A stretch of DNA of 64,000 nucleotides, taken from sequence record PQ416618.1; one strand, written 5' to 3'. Within the stretch, counting starts at the first letter, position 1. Each line of letters opens with the position of its first letter. Below are positions 15,373-58,280 of the stretch, piece by piece. Source of the DNA: Escherichia phage vB_VIPECOMC06. The position numbers and the translations under genes were made by a program. The notes beneath the pieces were generated by a model. The model did no database searches, was not told the DNA's origin, and saw only the letters and a program-made list of their open reading frames with translations.

Positions 15373-16815
15373 GTGGTAGAAATTATTTTGTCTCATCTAG
15401 TATATGACCAGGCTTATTTTTCTAAGGTCTGGCCTTATATGGATTCTGAGTATTTTGAGCGTGGACCGGCAAAAAACGTCTTTAAAATTATAAAGAGCCA
15501 CGTTAACGAATATAATGCAATGCCGTCTATCAATGCATTAAAGGTGGCTTTAGATAACAGTTCTTTAACTGAAGCCGAATATAAAGGAACTTCAGACCTA
15601 ATTGAAAAATTGGCTGATACTCCTGAAGACCATGAATGGTTGGTTAAAGAAACTGAGAAATATGTCCAGCAAAAAGCGATGTATAATGCTACATCCAAAA
15701 TCATTGAGATTCAGTCTAATGCTGAACTACCTCCAGAACAACGTAACAAGAAAATGCCTGATGTAGGAGCTATTCCTGATATTATGCGTCAAGCACTTTC
15801 AATTTCGTTTGATAGTTATGTTGGACATGACTGGATGGAAGACTACGAAGCACGCTGGCTTTCTTATCTGAACAAAGCACGTAAGGTCCCGTTCAAATTA
15901 AACATTCTGAATAAAATCACTAAAGGTGGTGCTGAAACCGGTACACTGAATGTTTTAATGGCTGGTGTTAACGTTGGTAAATCTTTAGGCCTTTGTTCAC
16001 TTGCTGCAGATTATCTTCAAACAGGTCATAACGTTCTTTATATTTCCATGGAAATGGCTGAAGAAGTTTGTGCTAAGCGTATAGATGCAAACATGCTTGA
16101 CGTATCGCTCGATGATATCGATGATGGTAACGTATCTTATGCTGAATATAAAGCTAAGATGGAAAAATGGCGTTCAAAAACAACATTAGGACGTTTAGTA
16201 GTTAAACAGTATCCTACTGGCGGAGCTAATGCTAATACATTCCGTGCATTGCTTAATGAATTGAAACTCAAGAAGAACTTTGTGCCGTCTGTAATCATGG
16301 TTGATTACTTAGGTATTTGTGGGTCTTGTCGTATCAGAGTTTACACTGAAAATAGCTACACATTAGTTAAAGCTATCGCAGAAGAACTTCGGGCATTAGC
16401 AGTAGAATCTGAAACAGTTCTATGGACTGCAGCTCAAGTAGGACGTGCAGCATGGGATGCTTCGGATATGAACATGAGTGATATTGCAGAATCAGCAGGT
16501 TTACCAGCAACGGCAGATTTCATGTTGGCTGTAATTGAAACCGAAGAACTTGCACAAGCTGAACAACAACTTATCAAGCAAATCAAATCACGATATGGCG
16601 ATAAGAATAAGTGGAATAAATTCCTGATGGGTGTACGTAAAGGCAACCAGAAATGGGTTGAGATTGAGCAAGAAGGCATGAACACACCTAACACAGTAAA
16701 TGAAAACGCAGGTGCTCAGATGCGTCAGGCAGAGGTGAATCGTACGGAACGCGTAGGTAAAGCCAAAGCAACACGTGCTGACCTAGATAGCTTAGCCAAT
16801 GAGTTAAAATTTTAA
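15373..16815 (+). CDS. 41: Replicative helicase gp41 (DnaB family)
   Basis: 480 aa; Walker A GVNVGKS; N-terminus MVEIILSHLVYDQAYF; GTG start with SD aaggag 6 nt upstream. Confidence 0.95.
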   Translation: MVEIILSHLVYDQAYFSKVWPYMDSEYFERGPAKNVFKIIKSHVNEYNAMPSINALKVALDNSSLTEAEYKGTSDLIEKLADTPEDHEWLVKETEKYVQQKAMYNATSKIIEIQSNAELPPEQRNKKMPDVGAIPDIMRQALSISFDSYVGHDWMEDYEARWLSYLNKARKVPFKLNILNKITKGGAETGTLNVLMAGVNVGKSLGLCSLAADYLQTGHNVLYISMEMAEEVCAKRIDANMLDVSLDDIDDGNVSYAEYKAKMEKWRSKTTLGRLVVKQYPTGGANANTFRALLNELKLKKNFVPSVIMVDYLGICGSCRIRVYTENSYTLVKAIAEELRALAVESETVLWTAAQVGRAAWDASDMNMSDIAESAGLPATADFMLAVIETEELAQAEQQLIKQIKSRYGDKNKWNKFLMGVRKGNQKWVEIEQEGMNTPNTVNENAGAQMRQAEVNRTERVGKAKATRADLDSLANELKF

Positions 16816-16820
16816 TAAAA

Positions 16821-16838
16821 AGGAGACTTCGGTCTCCT
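16821..16838 (+). terminator. CUUCGG-tetraloop hairpin after gene 41 (aggagacTTCGgtctcct)
   Basis: 7-bp stem with UUCG loop 5 nt after the gp41 stop; short U tail; immediately followed by an early promoter. Confidence 0.55.
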
Positions 16839-16844
16839 TTCGGG

Positions 16845-16874
16845 GTTTACATCTTCCTCTAGGCATGATATGAT
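16845..16874 (+). promoter_or_regulatory. T4-type early promoter (-35 GTTTAC, extended -10 TGaTATGAT)
   Basis: GTTTAC 16845-16850, 18-nt spacer, TGn+TATGAT 16866-16874; precedes ORF 16904. Confidence 0.55.
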
Positions 16875-16903
16875 ATACTTACACTAACCAAGAGGAGAAC
16901 AAA

Positions 16904-17221
16904 ATGGAAACCATCGATTGTAAAGCAGAATTTAAGATTTTTTATCACGGTTCAAGCAGTTCAGCTAACATCGAAAACATGCTTTGTCCTCCTGAGGAAA
17001 CAGGAGTTCTGTCTGAAACTGGACGTAAGAAAAACTTGGATCGTGTATTCTTTACTGAAGATATCGGTTTAGCAAAGATTTATGCAGGACGAGCAGCACG
17101 CTCTTATGGAGGTGAACCACGTCTCTATCGAGTAATTTCTCCGGTAGACGTAGTTCAAATGAATAATACTAAAGGTGCTACAGTTTATCACGCTGAATGG
17201 GCATTTTGCGAGGAAATATGA
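16904..17221 (+). CDS. Hypothetical early protein (105 aa)
   Basis: ATG with RBS agaggag; preceded by an early promoter. Confidence 0.5.
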   Translation: METIDCKAEFKIFYHGSSSSANIENMLCPPEETGVLSETGRKKNLDRVFFTEDIGLAKIYAGRAARSYGGEPRLYRVISPVDVVQMNNTKGATVYHAEWAFCEEI

Positions 17222-18160: not shown

Positions 18161-18190
18161 GTTTACATTATAGATGGACTATAGTATAGT
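18161..18190 (+). promoter_or_regulatory. T4-type early promoter with palindrome straddling the -10 (ggacta / tagtcc)
   Basis: GTTTAC 18161-18166, 18-nt spacer, TATAGT 18185-18190; inverted repeat 18176-18181 / 18190-18195. Confidence 0.55.
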
Positions 18191-18219
18191 AGTCCTATCA
18201 AATCAACTAAGGAGTTAAA

Positions 18220-19890: not shown

Positions 19891-20913
19891 ATGGCTGAAT
19901 GGATAGATAATGAATTTGCTTATCGTGCGTTTTCTCACCTACCTCGTTTTAGACAAATCAATAATTCAAGCACATTTAAATTAACATTTCGATGTCCAGT
20001 TTGTGGCGACTCCCAGACAGATGCAATGAAAGCTCGCGGATGGTATTATGGCGGTACTCCTGGTAATGTACATTGCTATAATTGTCAATACCACAATACA
20101 ATTTCCGGATACTTAAAAGAGTATGATGAAGAGCTTTATCGCGAATATCTAATGGAAGTTCGTAAAGAAAAAGCTAGAATGGAACCAAAGATTGAAAAGG
20201 TTCCTGAACATAAACCAGAGCCGGAGAAAAAGACTATAAATTCTTTGCCGTCTTGTTCTCGTCTGGACAAGCTGCCTGAAGAGCATCCTATTGTGAAATA
20301 TGTTAAGTCTCGATGCATTCCTAAAGAATCATGGAACAGATTATGGTTCACATTAGAATGGCCTAAATTGGTCAACAAGATTCAACCCGGCACATATAAG
20401 AAAGAGATTCCTGAACCGCGTTTGGTTATTCCTATTTTTAATAAAGACGGGAAGGCTGAGTCATTCCAAGGACGTGCACTTCGTAAAGATGCTCCTCAGA
20501 AATATATCACTATTAAAGCGTTTGAGTCTGCAACAAAAATTTATGGTGTTGAACGTGTTAAGGAAGGAGACGTCTGGGTAATGGAAGGCCCTATTGATAG
20601 TTTATTCATACCCAATGCAATAGCTATTACAGGCGGCTCGATAGATTTAGATGTGGTACCATTTAAAGAACGTCGGGTATGGGTAATGGATAATGAACCT
20701 AGGCATCCGGATACTATAGCTCGCATGAAGCGATTAGTTGATGCAGGCGAACGTGTCATGTTCTGGGACCGAGCTCCGTGGAGATCAAAGGATGTGAATG
20801 ATATGGTGATGAAAGAAAATGCAACACCACAAGAAATTTTAGAATATATGAAACAGAATATTTCAAGTGGGTTGCATGCTAAAATGAGATTATCTCGTTA
20901 TTCGAAGATTTAA
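19891..20913 (+). CDS. 61: DNA primase gp61
   Basis: 340 aa; zinc ribbon CPVCGDS...CYNC; TOPRIM-like C-terminal region; matches T4 gp61 in length. Confidence 0.9.
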   Translation: MAEWIDNEFAYRAFSHLPRFRQINNSSTFKLTFRCPVCGDSQTDAMKARGWYYGGTPGNVHCYNCQYHNTISGYLKEYDEELYREYLMEVRKEKARMEPKIEKVPEHKPEPEKKTINSLPSCSRLDKLPEEHPIVKYVKSRCIPKESWNRLWFTLEWPKLVNKIQPGTYKKEIPEPRLVIPIFNKDGKAESFQGRALRKDAPQKYITIKAFESATKIYGVERVKEGDVWVMEGPIDSLFIPNAIAITGGSIDLDVVPFKERRVWVMDNEPRHPDTIARMKRLVDAGERVMFWDRAPWRSKDVNDMVMKENATPQEILEYMKQNISSGLHAKMRLSRYSKI

Positions 20914-21718: not shown

Positions 21719-21724
21719 TTAAGT

Positions 21725-21732
21725 TATAAATA
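21725..21732 (+). promoter_or_regulatory. T4 late promoter TATAAATA upstream of soc
   Basis: Exact TATAAATA 32 nt upstream of the soc ATG. Confidence 0.7.
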
Positions 21733-22006: not shown

Positions 22007-22040
22007 AAGGAATCCTTCGGGATTCCTTTTTTTTTTTTTT
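22007..22040 (+). terminator. Rho-independent terminator after soc (UUCG-loop hairpin plus 14-T tract)
   Basis: aaggaatccTTCGggattcctt followed by a 14-T run. Confidence 0.85.
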
Positions 22041-22049
22041 GTTTCTACA

Positions 22050-23531: not shown

Positions 23532-23560
23532 GTTTACATTCCCTCCTCTCGTGTTATGAT
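23532..23560 (+). promoter_or_regulatory. T4-type early promoter (-35 GTTTAC, extended -10 TGtTATGAT)
   Basis: GTTTAC 23532-23537, 17-nt spacer, TATGAT 23555-23560. Confidence 0.5.
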
Positions 23561-23662
23561 AGGCTTATCTTTAAATGGAGGTCTATCATGACATGTCAAT
23601 CTGAACTTCAAGAACGCGAATACCTAACAAAATCATTCATTTAAAAATATTGAATTTTTAGT

Positions 23663-23690
23663 GTACAATCTCTTCCGATGATGATACTAT
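23663..23690 (+). promoter_or_regulatory. Early promoter variant (-35 TGTACA, extended -10 TGaTACTAT)
   Basis: TGTACA 23663-23668, 16-nt spacer, TACTAT 23685-23690; precedes the ADP-ribosyltransferase gene. Confidence 0.45.
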
Positions 23691-23718
23691 ACCTTTATCA
23701 ACCATAGGAGAAACCTAA

Positions 23719-24327
23719 ATGTTTATGCCGTATAATGAATGTGAAATTGAAGAAATGGTTCGTCGTGCTCAATGCCCGGACTATCAGGATGAACTTCAGT
23801 ACAAAATAGATGAGCAATTCAGTGACATTGAACAAAGTGTACTGTGGCAATGTATGGAAAACAAGCCAGACAGCATCCAACAAGATTTAAGTGCAATTGT
23901 TCGTAGAAATTGGTCTTCTTCTGTTCCTGAGACAATGTATCGTGGAATCTCTAAGAAAACTATGGCCACACTCGATGATAAAGGCATTGGTAGTATTATT
24001 AAATTTGACAGAGTAATGAGCTTCAGCCCAGTGTTCAGTGTAGCACGTAACTTCGCTTCATATAATTTTTATGGAACATTTAATATGTTCTGCATCAAAG
24101 ATGCACCATTTGCTTTCAACTTCCGTGAACATATGCTTAACATGATTCTGGCTGCACCATCTTGCGAGTTCAATGGAGCTTTCCCTGAAGCTACAAGACG
24201 GTCTAATGCTAGACTTATATCTGACGAATGTGAATTTATGCTCCCTATAGGGACTACACTGCGTGTAGATTCTATTATTCAAGATGGACGTTATACAATC
24301 TGGAATCTGTCTATTGTAGGTTACTGA
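23719..24327 (+). CDS. ADP-ribosyltransferase, ModA/ModB-like (R-S-E class)
   Basis: 202 aa; catalytic triad elements in order: Arg (YRG), S-x-S (SFSPVFS), E-x-E (SDECEF); position matches T4 modA/modB. Confidence 0.55.
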   Translation: MFMPYNECEIEEMVRRAQCPDYQDELQYKIDEQFSDIEQSVLWQCMENKPDSIQQDLSAIVRRNWSSSVPETMYRGISKKTMATLDDKGIGSIIKFDRVMSFSPVFSVARNFASYNFYGTFNMFCIKDAPFAFNFREHMLNMILAAPSCEFNGAFPEATRRSNARLISDECEFMLPIGTTLRVDSIIQDGRYTIWNLSIVGY

Positions 24328-27542: not shown

Positions 27543-27572
27543 GTTTACAACCAAGGATGGTTGGAGTATAAT
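27543..27572 (+). promoter_or_regulatory. T4-type early promoter (-35 GTTTAC, -10 TATAAT)
   Basis: GTTTAC 27543-27548, 18-nt spacer, TATAAT 27567-27572. Confidence 0.55.
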
Positions 27573-28490: not shown

Positions 28491-28519
28491 GTTTACTTCT
28501 CCTCCGGTTTTGATATTAT
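28491..28519 (+). promoter_or_regulatory. T4-type early promoter (-35 GTTTAC, extended -10 TGaTATTAT)
   Basis: GTTTAC 28491-28496, 17-nt spacer, TATTAT 28514-28519. Confidence 0.55.
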
Positions 28520-28545
28520 AACCATATCAACCAGAGGAGAATAAT

Positions 28546-29070
28546 ATGTTAGTTTACCGCGTAGAACGTAGTTTTTGTACTCAACGTGAATCATTACCAG
28601 GAATTGCTATCGAAGATGGTAAAGCCGTCAGAATTTGGGAAACCTCTTGGAATAAAGAACCTCGCTCGCCATACGGTTGGTCGGGCACCGACAACTCTGA
28701 AGAAACATGGGAGTTCCTTGATAAGCATGGAATAATCTCAGGTAACTTCTACCATCACGGCGACAACTATAATGTCCCTAATCGTCCTACAGTAAATGAA
28801 GACAAACTCCTTGAACAAAATATCTTAAGATACCATAGAATTGAGCACACATTTGAATTGAGTGAAGATTGGGCTCAAGGGTTCTATTTTGGATTTGAAA
28901 GTGTTGACGCGGTTTATGCATGGTTTGATGACCAGATGGATGTTGAACTCTTGAAAGCTAAAGGATACTACATCGCGATCTATGAAGCACCTGATTTCAT
29001 CCTCGGAAGTTGTCAATTAATGTTTAGACGTTCATTGGCAGAACAAGTTGATTTTATTTTGCTAAAATGA
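28546..29070 (+). CDS. Hypothetical protein (174 aa)
   Basis: RBS agaggag; early promoter upstream. Confidence 0.5.
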   Translation: MLVYRVERSFCTQRESLPGIAIEDGKAVRIWETSWNKEPRSPYGWSGTDNSEETWEFLDKHGIISGNFYHHGDNYNVPNRPTVNEDKLLEQNILRYHRIEHTFELSEDWAQGFYFGFESVDAVYAWFDDQMDVELLKAKGYYIAIYEAPDFILGSCQLMFRRSLAEQVDFILLK

Positions 29071-29099
29071 TGTACAACAACTACGGTCTATGATACTAT
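29071..29099 (+). promoter_or_regulatory. Early promoter variant (-35 TGTACA, extended -10 TGaTACTAT) with palindrome ggtcta / tagacc around the -10
   Basis: TGTACA 29071-29076; TACTAT 29094-29099; inverted repeat 29085-29090 / 29099-29104. Confidence 0.5.
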
Positions 29100-29127
29100 A
29101 GACCTATCAAAACAAGAGGAGAATATT

Positions 29128-33399: not shown

Positions 33400-33491
33400 A
33401 TCCTGAATTGCCTGGGGCACTATTACACATAAGATGATAGATTATATGGTCTTTAGTAATAGTGCCCTAGGAATCTACTGAAGAGAATATT

Positions 33492-37696: not shown

Positions 37697-37726
37697 GTTT
37701 ACAACTAAGTAGGACTATGATATAGT
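37697..37726 (+). promoter_or_regulatory. T4-type early promoter with palindrome aggacta / tagtcct straddling the -10
   Basis: GTTTAC 37697-37702, 18-nt spacer, TGaTATAGT 37718-37726; inverted repeat 37711-37717 / 37726-37732. Confidence 0.55.
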
Positions 37727-37752
37727 AGTCCTATCTAAAAGAGGATAACATC

Positions 37753-38205: not shown

Positions 38206-38235
38206 GTTTACAACAAGGTAGGATTATGGTATAGT
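38206..38235 (+). promoter_or_regulatory. T4-type early promoter with imperfect palindrome aggatta / tagtcct around the -10
   Basis: GTTTAC 38206-38211, 18-nt spacer, TGgTATAGT 38227-38235. Confidence 0.55.
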
Positions 38236-38263
38236 AGTCCTACTGGAACATGAGGAACACAAA

Positions 38264-38464: not shown

Positions 38465-38540
38465 AATTGTACAAACTCTCGAGAGCAGAGTATAATGCTC
38501 TCATGGATTACAAAAACATTAATCAATTGAGGAAATTAGC

Positions 38541-40656: not shown

Positions 40657-40732
40657 GTGCCCTAGCCTTAGGATTTCTCGGTGCAATAGCTGCACTAGTG
40701 ATTTGGCTGTATCGGTTGGACAAACATGATTA

Positions 40733-40752
40733 GGGAGCTTCGGCTCCCTTTT
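40733..40752 (+). terminator. Rho-independent terminator after gene 52 (gggagcTTCGgctccc plus TTTT)
   Basis: 6-bp GC stem with UUCG loop followed by ttttg. Confidence 0.7.
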
Positions 40753-55060: not shown

Positions 55061-55376
55061 TATTAAACCGGTTGATGAGGCCGGTTTATCTGAACAAGAA
55101 TTAGCGGTAAAACACGATAAAGATGATATCGCTAAATTGCTTGACCGACAAGAAAACGGATTCATTATCGAATCCATGGTTGAACAATTTGGTATGTCTT
55201 ATTTAGAAGCAACAACTGCTTTCTTGGAAGAAAATTCTATTCCAGAAACACAATTTGCTAAATTTATTCCTACAGGAATTGTTGAAAAAATTACAAGCGA
55301 AGCAATTGATGAAAACATGCTTCGCCCATCAGTTGCTCGTGGTGAAAAAACTAATACGTTAGATTTCTTATTATGA
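55038..55376 (+). CDS. 33: Late transcription co-activator gp33
   Basis: 112 aa (T4 gp33 length); overlaps the dsbA 3' end; upstream of 59. Confidence 0.7.
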   Translation: MTQFSLSDIKPVDEAGLSEQELAVKHDKDDIAKLLDRQENGFIIESMVEQFGMSYLEATTAFLEENSIPETQFAKFIPTGIVEKITSEAIDENMLRPSVARGEKTNTLDFLL

Positions 55377-56056
55377 AATACGTTGTGTATAAAACTACCA
55401 ATAAAATAAATGGTAAAATTTATATAGGCGTACACAAAAAACATAAAGAGAAAGATTGGTATATTGGGTCTGGCCGCGCTATATTAGCGGCCAAAGCTAA
55501 ATACGGACTAAAAAATTTTTATACTGAAGTTCTTTATGAATATGATAATGACAAGGACGCCTATAAAAAAGAAGCAGAATTGGTTAATGAAGATTTTGTT
55601 TTGCGAACTGATACTTATAACCTGGTTCCAGGTGGTAAAGGTGGCCCTGGTAAAAAACAAAGTGATGAAGCTAAAAGGGCTATTTCACTTTCTAAAATAG
55701 GGAAACCTAGATCTGAAGAGACTAAGGCTAAAGTATCTAAAACCAGATTAGAAAGAAAAATACCATCACCTAATAAGGGTAAGAAACTATCTGAAGCTCA
55801 TAAATTAGCTTTGAGTAAAGTCCGAAAAGGGCGAAAAACGAATAAGCCGATGCCTGATTCAACCAAAGAAGCTCTTAGAATAGCAAATTCAAAGCCGCAT
55901 TCTAAAGAAAGAACTATTAAAAAACAAAAACCTATAATTATTGATGGTATAAAATACTCATCATGTACAGAAGTTTCGGATGTTTTTAATATTTCTGCAT
56001 CTCTAGTTACGTATAGACTTAAATCTTCAAAATGGCCTGGATGGAACTATGATTAA
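55373..56056 (+). CDS. GIY-YIG homing endonuclease (Seg-like) with NUMOD3-type DNA-binding repeats
   Basis: 227 aa; GIY-YIG core YVVYKTTNKINGKIYIGVH; four K-x-x-x-S-x-x-K-like repeats; overlaps the gp33 stop (ATGA) and the gp59 start. Confidence 0.7.
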   Translation: MKYVVYKTTNKINGKIYIGVHKKHKEKDWYIGSGRAILAAKAKYGLKNFYTEVLYEYDNDKDAYKKEAELVNEDFVLRTDTYNLVPGGKGGPGKKQSDEAKRAISLSKIGKPRSEETKAKVSKTRLERKIPSPNKGKKLSEAHKLALSKVRKGRKTNKPMPDSTKEALRIANSKPHSKERTIKKQKPIIIDGIKYSSCTEVSDVFNISASLVTYRLKSSKWPGWNYD

Positions 56057-57719: not shown

Positions 57720-57725
57720 TAAATT

Positions 57726-57747
57726 GGGAGACTTCGGTCTCCCTTTT
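57726..57747 (+). terminator. Rho-independent terminator after gene 32 (gggagacTTCGgtctccc plus TTTT)
   Basis: 7-bp stem with UUCG loop, 6 nt after the stop, followed by ttttg. Confidence 0.75.
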
Positions 57748-57774
57748 GAGTATCTGTAAATTGCCGAAAAAGTT

Positions 57775-57803
57775 GTTTACTTTTCCTTTAAACATGATAC
57801 TAT
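57775..57803 (+). promoter_or_regulatory. T4-type early promoter (-35 GTTTAC, extended -10 TGaTACTAT)
   Basis: GTTTAC 57775-57780, 17-nt spacer, TACTAT 57798-57803. Confidence 0.55.
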
Positions 57804-57832
57804 AGACTTATCAACAACATGAGGAAATCAAA

Positions 57833-58219
57833 ATGGAAATCGGAAAATCTTATATCATTAACCCTTTATTTAAAGACGACTTTGCTAACGAGTGCCGTTG
57901 CAATGCAATGATGCTAAATTTAATAGAGAAGCACGGACCTAGTTTTGTTGTAGATGAAATGGAAAGTGATGATTGTGCTGGTGACTGTGTGGTACGTGTA
58001 ACTATGGAAGACGGCACTGAATACATGGCCGGTGGCCCACTTGAGACGTATTTTGAGATTTACTCTGAAGAATTCAAATACTTTACTGAGGTAACTTTAG
58101 AAAAGCCTCAACCTACTAACGAAGGTATAACTTTAGGTGTAACAAAAATCCATTGTATCGTAGATGAAACCAACGTCGACGAAATCATCAAACTTTTGCA
58201 AAAAACTTTTAAAAAGTAG
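57833..58219 (+). CDS. Hypothetical protein (128 aa)
   Basis: RBS gaggaaat; early promoter upstream. Confidence 0.45.
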   Translation: MEIGKSYIINPLFKDDFANECRCNAMMLNLIEKHGPSFVVDEMESDDCAGDCVVRVTMEDGTEYMAGGPLETYFEIYSEEFKYFTEVTLEKPQPTNEGITLGVTKIHCIVDETNVDEIIKLLQKTFKK

Positions 58220-58248
58220 TTTACAACAAGATAGGGCTATGTTATAGT
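58219..58248 (+). promoter_or_regulatory. T4-type early promoter with covarying palindrome agggcta / tagccct around the -10
   Basis: GTTTAC 58219-58224, 18-nt spacer, TGtTATAGT 58240-58248; inverted repeat 58232-58238 / 58248-58254. Confidence 0.55.
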
Positions 58249-58280
58249 AGCCCTATCAAATAAAAGTGAAGGAGAATAAA

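Follow-up and report, generated by a model that had tools for sequence, protein, structure and literature searches.

Early promoters with an embedded stem-loop, present in many copies between small early open reading frames (ORFs), have been described in T4-type phages as promoter-early stem-loops (PeSLs; Arbiol et al. 2010, PMC2839356; Comeau et al. 2014, PMC4122927), with attenuation of upstream transcription and service as a recombination site as their proposed roles. In phages phi1 and RB49, the stem-loop overlaps the -10 box in one of its two commonest positions, a PeSL stem-loop reduced downstream lacZ, like rrnB T1, and PeSL stem-loops blocked the sequencing of single-stranded templates (Arbiol et al. 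2010, PMC2839356), whereas in T-even phages (T4/PST) the stem-loops are placed immediately 5' of the promoter (Comeau et al. 2014, PMC4122927). Here we describe inverted repeats that straddle the -10 hexamer of a subset of early promoters, including that at 37711-37732, in a stretch of 64,000 nucleotides from Escherichia phage vB_VIPECOMC06 (sequence record PQ416618.1), the whole of which is referred to below as the window. About one third of the early promoters in the window carry such a -10 stem-loop, and the feature is real and largely known: these elements are members of the PeSL class already described in T4-type phages. The preliminary description of the window had correctly seen that the repeats straddle the -10 but had not recognised the published PeSL architecture. 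Because the 2014 paper puts T-even stem-loops just upstream of the promoter, the straddling class in RB69-like phages and in T4 is an extension of the PeSL and not a new kind of element.

The window comes from an RB69-like Mosigvirus, a T4-type phage: a piece of about 3 kb carrying rIIB, denB, ndd and gp52 was 97-98% identical to about 150 RB69-like coliphages, and the window is colinear with RB69 at 94-98% identity, with a handful of indels. The five inverted repeats first listed were all recovered, with two small corrections given below, and each lies in a sigma70-type early promoter; a sixth site, at 38481-38502, had been overlooked. All six promoters lie on the + strand and read GTTTACA or TGTACA, N17 usually with TGn, then TATAGT, TACTAT or TATAAT, followed by a Shine-Dalgarno (SD) sequence and an ATG 18-45 nt after position -7. 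Positions -22 to -16 pair with -7 to -1 around a centre at -11.5, leaving in the loop TGn and all but the last base of the -10. Arms of 6-7 bp flanking an 8-nt core with the -10 were rightly noted, but the pairing often reaches 10-12 bp, and RNA folding of the six sites shows longer stems of 8-11 bp (-9.7 to -18.7 kcal/mol, z -2.6 to -6.8). All six match early promoters of RB69 that Nolan et al. 2006 had predicted independently, among them the two with the top scores (Pe:165795 and Pe:165283).

The promoter between denB and an 87-aa ORF (37697-37734; -35 GTTTACA at 37697-37703, -10 TATAGT at 37721-37726) has its stem at 37709-37718 / 37725-37734 (RNA -13.2 kcal/mol, z -3.6), corresponds to Pe:165795, the highest-scoring RB69 prediction, and begins its -35 12 nt after a stop codon. 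The promoter at 18161-18199 (-35 at 18161-18167, -10 TATAGT at 18185-18190), with arms first listed as ggacta/tagtcc at 18176-18195, forms a stem at 18173-18182 / 18189-18199 (-11.1 kcal/mol, z -3.5), with Pe:19020 as its RB69 counterpart and 5 nt between stop codon and -35. At 38206-38244 (-10 TATAGT at 38230-38235; Pe:165283; gap 3 nt) the stem 38217-38227 / 38234-38244 (-13.6 kcal/mol) contains one U.G pair, so that the repeat reported at 38220 is real but its arms are not perfect, having one T.G mismatch (aggaTta / taGtcct). The repeat reported to start at 58232 is likewise real but was placed one position too early: agggcta occupies 58233-58239 and tagccct 58248-58254, with one further pair on each side, within a promoter at 58219-58257 (-10 TATAGT at 58243-58248, stem 58230-58240 / 58247-58257, -18.7 kcal/mol, z -6.8; RB69 orthologue Pe:145300). 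The promoter at 29070-29104 (-35 TGTACA at 29071-29076, -10 TACTAT at 29094-29099, stem 29085-29092 / 29097-29104, -9.7 kcal/mol, z -5.3; Pe:6863) directly follows the upstream stop codon (gap 0 nt). The sixth site is the ndd early promoter (38467-38502; -35 TGTACA at 38468-38473, -10 TATAAT at 38491-38496, stem 38481-38487 / 38496-38502, -12 kcal/mol; Pe:165022; gap 3 nt), in which GAGAGCA(gag TATAA)TGCTCTC at 38481-38502 has arms unrelated to those of the other five in an identical register.

The agreement with PeSLs covers their promoter type, stem-loop, repetition and recombination junctions. The six sites combine a sigma70-type early promoter (-35, 16-18 nt spacer, -10 and A/T-rich upstream sequence) with a stable stem-loop within or next to it; they occur in many dispersed copies at junctions between small early ORFs, each followed by an SD and a start codon; G-T pairs are tolerated; and in close relatives indels break inside elements of this kind, in the form of spacer-hairpin promoters or of promoters complementary to an SD (both described below). 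RB49, the phage in which PeSLs were defined, was also checked directly and contains several early promoters with -10-straddling stems centred at -9.5 to -12, for example ATGCGGTTAT-catata-ATGACCGCAT.

The palindromes are well beyond chance. The enrichment that the preliminary description had proposed to examine statistically was borne out: at least five of six Watson-Crick pairs were present in 6 of the 17 window promoters (P=0.0002 when right arms were permuted among promoters), and within-arm shuffles reached the observed level in 0 of 20000 trials. A larger promoter sample was taken from 4 Mb of phage DNA by four arm-agnostic pattern scans of IMG/VR, the first seeded on TATAGT, which gave 733 unique promoter-like sites in 622 clusters. 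In this sample a helix with at least 6 of 8 Watson-Crick pairs occurred at register -11.5 in 64 of the 622 clusters, compared with 2-14 at shifts of -6 to +8, and the highest Watson-Crick excess among column pairs was at (-19,-4) (z 5.3) and (-17,-6) (z 5.0). A straddling stem is also present in at least 11 of the 48 published RB69 early promoters, and query fragments matched up to 5 places per relative genome. The RefSeq and GenBank records of T4 are without promoter features, and its promoters were predicted by pattern; the 59 kb scanned held two clear straddling cases, one after gene 41 (10-bp stem) and the other at the motB promoter (7-bp stem; GGGACCAgagTATAATGGTCCC), and the dmd promoter of T4 reads GACAAGACTAtggtatagTAGTCTTGTC. 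The -10 variants TATAGT and TACTAT made up 39 of 68 helix-bearing clusters and 174 of 622 overall, counts to be read with the TATAGT seed of the first scan in mind; with these variants T(-15) and G(-14) can pair into the hexamer, which shortens the loop, and their enrichment may be either co-adaptation or a family effect.

That the arms covary, and that selection therefore acts on the pairing itself and not on the primary sequence, had been suggested from five promoters and is borne out by 68 independent helix-bearing clusters and by compensated changes between orthologues. Across these clusters the pair -18:-5 was A:T in 10, T:A in 14, G:C in 11 and C:G in 14; the pair -17:-6 was T:A in 29, C:G in 25, A:T in 3 and G:C in 1; and the pair -19:-4 was A:T in 33, G:C in 20 and T:A in 5. 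The outer pairs are mainly purine:pyrimidine, mostly AGG/CCT, and the stems often run across +1 to +5, reaching lengths of up to 12-14 bp. Promoter orthology was assigned through the downstream proteins. The ndd promoter has GAGAGCA/TGCTCTC in the window and GAGGACA/TGTCCTC in phages with 64% protein identity, a double compensatory change, and the orthologues of the 29070 promoter in other genera include AGGGCTA/TAGCCCT and AGGAACA/TGTTCCT, among others. Intermediate states were also seen: a C-to-T change in the WFL6982 orthologue of the 58219 promoter gives a T.G pair, and RB69 Pe:69254 holds a G.T intermediate between A:T and G:C versions. In RB69 Pe:145300 the consensus -35 is weakened or lost and the TG is lost, with the arms intact. 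Among orthologues the helix is sometimes kept in a shifted register and sometimes absent; apart from wobble pairs and such outright helix loss, the uncompensated arm changes named at the outset as a possible refutation were not found. Because all four Watson-Crick types occur in paired columns and orthologues show double compensatory changes, these sequence comparisons support selection for pairing in the early-promoter stem-loops.

As to what the pairing does, the most likely explanation, to which we give somewhat better than even odds, is a hairpin in the sense RNA that would mark the gene junction on read-through transcripts, attenuating or pausing transcription and/or blocking 3'-exonucleases. 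The promoter spacer (-28 to -16) and the discriminator with the initial transcribed bases (-7 to +5) are kept mutually complementary, with the constant TGn/-10 block forming the loop between the paired segments. The fixed centre at -11.5 would then arise because only two unconstrained segments can pair across a fixed TGn/-10 block, and a fixed register therefore requires no special promoter mechanics. The complete hairpin would be present only in read-through RNA, since the promoter's own transcript would begin 3' of the helix, and read-through RNA would always be made because the promoters abut the upstream stop codon; a hairpin at such a junction would define and protect the upstream cistron.

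The -35 of the inverted-repeat promoters in the window starts 0-12 nt past the upstream stop codon (n=6), and among 330 promoter clusters the gap was at most 15 nt in 89% of inverted-repeat promoters as against 54% of the others (p=2.5e-5). Four window promoters without the repeat and with longer gaps have ordinary UUCG terminators instead. These UUCG-tetraloop intrinsic terminators with T-runs lie directly upstream of the -35 (16815-16840, 22010-22045, 40700-40750 and 57725-57765), which is the 'stem-loop just upstream of promoter' PeSL arrangement. We infer that RNA rather than DNA would be the active form, because the RNA stems are stable (-9.7 to -18.7 kcal/mol) while the DNA hairpins, with loops of 8 nt, reach a marginal -3 to -9 kcal/mol, because the wobble-containing site at 38217-38244 is as DNA no better than shuffles on either strand, and because interior helix mismatches on the sense strand are more often G.T (13) than A.C (4; other 2; p=0.049).

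Several results weigh against the RNA hairpin. The asymmetry between G.T and A.C mismatches is weak (p about 0.05), and an apparently strong advantage in folding energy of the sense over the antisense strand was rejected as evidence, stems with equal G.T and A.C numbers showing an identical bias. For classical termination a U-tract would be expected after the helix; the mean was 1.4 T in the next 8 nt, 51% of which was A, and none of the 68 tails had 5 or more T. The canonical intrinsic terminator was accordingly rejected as a description of these stems, and a terminator consensus scan flagged two sites, on the minus strand only and with weak tails. Experiments have addressed a single stem-loop, RB49 PeSL211/210, which is of the spacer class and does not straddle the -10. 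Canonical terminators upstream of the promoter were found at 0 of 6 inverted-repeat and 4 of 11 other promoters of the window, which is suggestive, but in the large set such avoidance was not significant (2 of 37 against 32 of 293, p=0.40). No indels were found at the six inverted-repeat promoters in comparison with RB69 and WFL6982. In published work, a search for maps of T4 transcript ends at hairpins of this type gave nothing usable, and reviews of T4 transcription do not mention palindromes in early promoters.

The alternatives differ mainly in the molecule on which the repeat would act. The preliminary description had offered a cruciform or a dimeric protein site, and while the pairing behind that proposal stands, both are judged less likely, the arms being unconserved and the DNA hairpins marginal with 8-nt loops. 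A structure in DNA, either a cruciform or a single-strand hairpin in replication or recombination intermediates, might tune promoter melting or supercoil sensitivity, or be the target of T4-type structure-specific nucleases (endonuclease VII, gp46/47) in starting cassette recombination. The exact centring of the helix on the -10 would suit such a role, but the fixed register can be explained without promoter mechanics, and register shifts are tolerated among orthologues. Similarly, stem-loops do form in single-stranded DNA sequencing templates and the perfect palindrome at 58230-58257 folds equally and significantly on both DNA strands (-9.1 kcal/mol), yet arms of 7-12 bp with 6-8-nt loops make weak DNA hairpins, that at 38217-38244 resembles shuffles on both strands, and on the sense strand interior G.T mismatches outnumber A.C, although both strands would have to fold in a cruciform. 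PeSL mini-circle crossovers in RB49 and phi1 within or beside the stem-loop or -10, and the indels between window and RB69 that break inside promoters, also speak for action in DNA; the association with tight stop-codon junctions is left unexplained by it, and overall we regard a DNA-level role as unlikely. The operator of a dimeric phage or host DNA-binding protein that represses some early promoters, possibly a T4-type early shut-off factor, is highly improbable. In the strongest of the predicted early promoters the palindrome does overlap the -10, AGG/CCT predominates among the outer pairs, and the mechanism of T4 early-promoter shut-off is stated as unknown (PMC2988021). However, protein sites conserve sequence, and here the arms covary, differ within one genome (AGGACTA, GAGAGCA, GGTCTA) and, compensated, between orthologues; G.T positions break the DNA symmetry, and stem length and register vary. 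Examined as a palindromic protein operator, the element was rejected for want of a conserved half-site, all four Watson-Crick types occurring at the inner pairs.

A translational or processing switch would also act on RNA, with the hairpin altering downstream expression from read-through as opposed to proximal-promoter RNA, via the loss of the single-stranded ribosome standby or S1 region 5' of the SD or via the placement of RNase E or RegB cuts. The helix ends at -1 to +5, at the 5' edge of the ribosome-binding region, with the start codon 18-45 nt after -7; a sister class of promoters complementary to their own SD (24 of 339 clusters, see below) shows spacer-derived 5' arms used to distinguish read-through RNA, and the same logic applies in T4 genes e, soc, 49 and I-TevI. 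Against it, the SD and AUG lie outside the predicted helix at all six window sites. A translational or processing role on read-through RNA is thus a live variant of the favoured model, though taken by itself an improbable one. There might, finally, be no selected function at all, if the elements are dispersed promoter repeats that recombine and whose complementarity is kept by quasi-palindrome template switching or gene conversion, processes that are well documented in T4. The many copies within one family (TAGGACTATGnTATAGTAGTCCTATC, at least 8 copies in RB69), the recombination of promoters with each other and the gain and loss of the inverted repeat among orthologues would all follow, but not the occurrence of at least 35 distinct arm pairs in one register across genera, including the unrelated arms GAGAGCA, GGGACCA, AAGACTA and GAGATGA, nor the retention of the helix after register shifts and promoter decay; the strong association with tight junctions is not predicted either, and we consider the absence of function very unlikely.

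On the favoured model of a hairpin in read-through RNA, the repeated sequence of about 45 nt could also serve as a homology patch for cassette exchange between promoters, and recombination between copies would be a consequence of the sequence repetition. Three indels between the window and RB69 break inside promoters or 5' untranslated regions (UTRs), at 27546-27572, 16894-16901 and 57810-57835. At the first, RB69 has a 534-bp motB.1/ORF012 cassette with two flanking promoter copies, and the cassette is absent from the window. The promoter there (27544, at 27543-27572) has a hairpin within its spacer, AACCAaggaTGGTT, which is the other common PeSL class; the second RB69 copy beside the motB.1 cassette, ATCCAaggacGGAT, is a compensated variant, and it is within the promoter that the deletion has its junction. 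In T4, the orthologue of the 37697 promoter is chimeric: the left arm is kept and the right half comes from another promoter family. T4 early promoters at about 27079, 163673 and 167086 have an identical right half, tgg TACTAT ACAACT atcaactactgatac, with different left halves, which suggests recombination within the -10 region between promoter copies. Besides 16894-16901 and 57810-57835, other indel positions relative to RB69 are 17398, 21722-21725, 23627-23631 and 55376-56048, of which 55376-56048 is an extra 672 bp in the window; missing from the window are ORF041c (422 bp), gp61.4 (204 bp), 192 bp of intergenic sequence between soc and 56, the greater part of modB (504 bp) and ORF245c (238 bp), and several of the indel junctions fall in promoter or 5' UTR repeats.

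The second class of early promoter referred to above has a pyrimidine-rich spacer complementary to the SD region of its own gene. Such anti-SD promoters occur in the window at 16846-16915, 28492-28550, 23533-23590, 23662-23725 and 57776-57840, and in RB69 (L460) at about 20489-20537; examples are ttctcctccggtt / aaccagaggagaa and, from RB69, TCTCCAGTAG...CTACTGGAGA. Of 339 promoter clusters, 24 had a run of 7 or more contiguous pairs (controls 2-3) and 18 had a run of 8 or more (controls 0). In this class the SD would be masked only in read-through RNA. Below the promoter at 23533, in 23556-23600, a short ORF that resembles a modB remnant has a start-codon region, CTATCATGACA, to which the -10 region TGTTATGATAG is complementary. 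It is conceivable, if on balance doubtful, that T4-type early promoters carry a general code for 'which promoter made this RNA', in which the spacer is the 5' arm of structures found only in read-through RNA and would pair either with the discriminator and +1 to +5 or with the SD of the promoter's own gene. If so, the stability, processing or translation of early genes would depend on whether transcription started at the proximal or an upstream promoter, and immediate-early and delayed-early genes would be told apart by a systematic layer of control not previously described as such.

Two arrangements that had been presented as related to the early-promoter repeats are real but belong elsewhere. 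The 8-bp inverted repeat enclosing TATAAT at 1019-1041, after gene 46 and before the 45.2 homologue, is of a related but separate class: it lies in a middle-promoter-like site on the + strand (1009-1041; MotA box GCTTTA at 1009-1014, N12, TATAAT at 1027-1032), its arms 1019-1026 / 1034-1041 extend on folding to a 10-bp stem (1019-1028 / 1032-1041, -13.9 kcal/mol, z -4.7), and its centre is at about -9.5. With its -10-enclosing repeat this site is like the PmSLs described for phage nt-1 (PMC4122927). The 12-bp repeat at 33415-33467 is part of a larger hairpin with no promoter in register, which lies between the RB69ORF003c homologue and rIIA.1 (33411-33471; 16-bp stem 33411-33426 / 33456-33471 plus an inner helix, -35.1 kcal/mol, z -6.9). 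This hairpin lacks a U-tract and could be a processing site; Rfam gave no match to it or to anything else in the window.

Taken together, the covariation in a large sample confirms selection for pairing in the early-promoter stem-loops of T4-type phages, and the -10-straddling PeSL class now takes in RB69-like phages as well as T4 itself. What PeSL stem-loops do and why early genes are shuffled at these sites are niche questions. The practical gain is modest, but promoter and junction elements can be better annotated, with the warning that these hairpins are without terminator tails, and the natural compensatory variants offer a test set for the effect of PeSLs on read-through RNA.

Among other known systems, the virion RNA polymerase promoters of coliphage N4 are DNA hairpins with a 5-7 bp stem and a 3-nt loop, used by a phage polymerase with single-stranded DNA-binding protein. 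Like the present sites, they are early promoters of a phage and carry a short inverted repeat whose centre lies about 11-12 nt before the start, but the promoters described here are of the ordinary sigma70 type, their -10 lies in the loop, and no N4-type virion polymerase is known in T4-type phages. In bacterial operons, intercistronic stabiliser hairpins and repetitive extragenic palindromic (REP) elements can stop 3'-5' exonucleases and so give parts of a transcript different stabilities; like the window hairpins they are hairpins without a U-tract directly past a stop codon in polycistronic RNA, but unlike them they are not embedded in promoters. In T4 genes e, soc, 49 and I-TevI, hairpins sequester the ribosome-binding site on transcripts from upstream promoters. 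There, as here, a promoter lies inside or beside an inverted repeat, both arms are found only in RNA initiated upstream, and the proximal RNA is without the 5' arm; in those genes, however, the SD or start codon forms the 3' arm and the proximal promoter is of the late or middle type, whereas here the 3' arm is the discriminator with +1 to +5 and the SD lies outside, so that the anti-SD promoters are their closer analogue. For a review of the subject see PMC3014915. The nearest relatives remain the PeSLs, with which the sites share the sigma70-like early promoter with its AT-rich upstream sequence, the embedded stem-loop and the SD and start codon downstream. Within that class the -10-straddling stems are without the U-tract that the label 'terminator' implies; the Mosigvirus sites use GTTTACA/TATAGT and A/T-richer AGGnCTA-type arms in place of polyG/polyC; and, unlike the T-even PeSLs of the 2014 paper, which lie just upstream of the promoter, their stems surround the -10.

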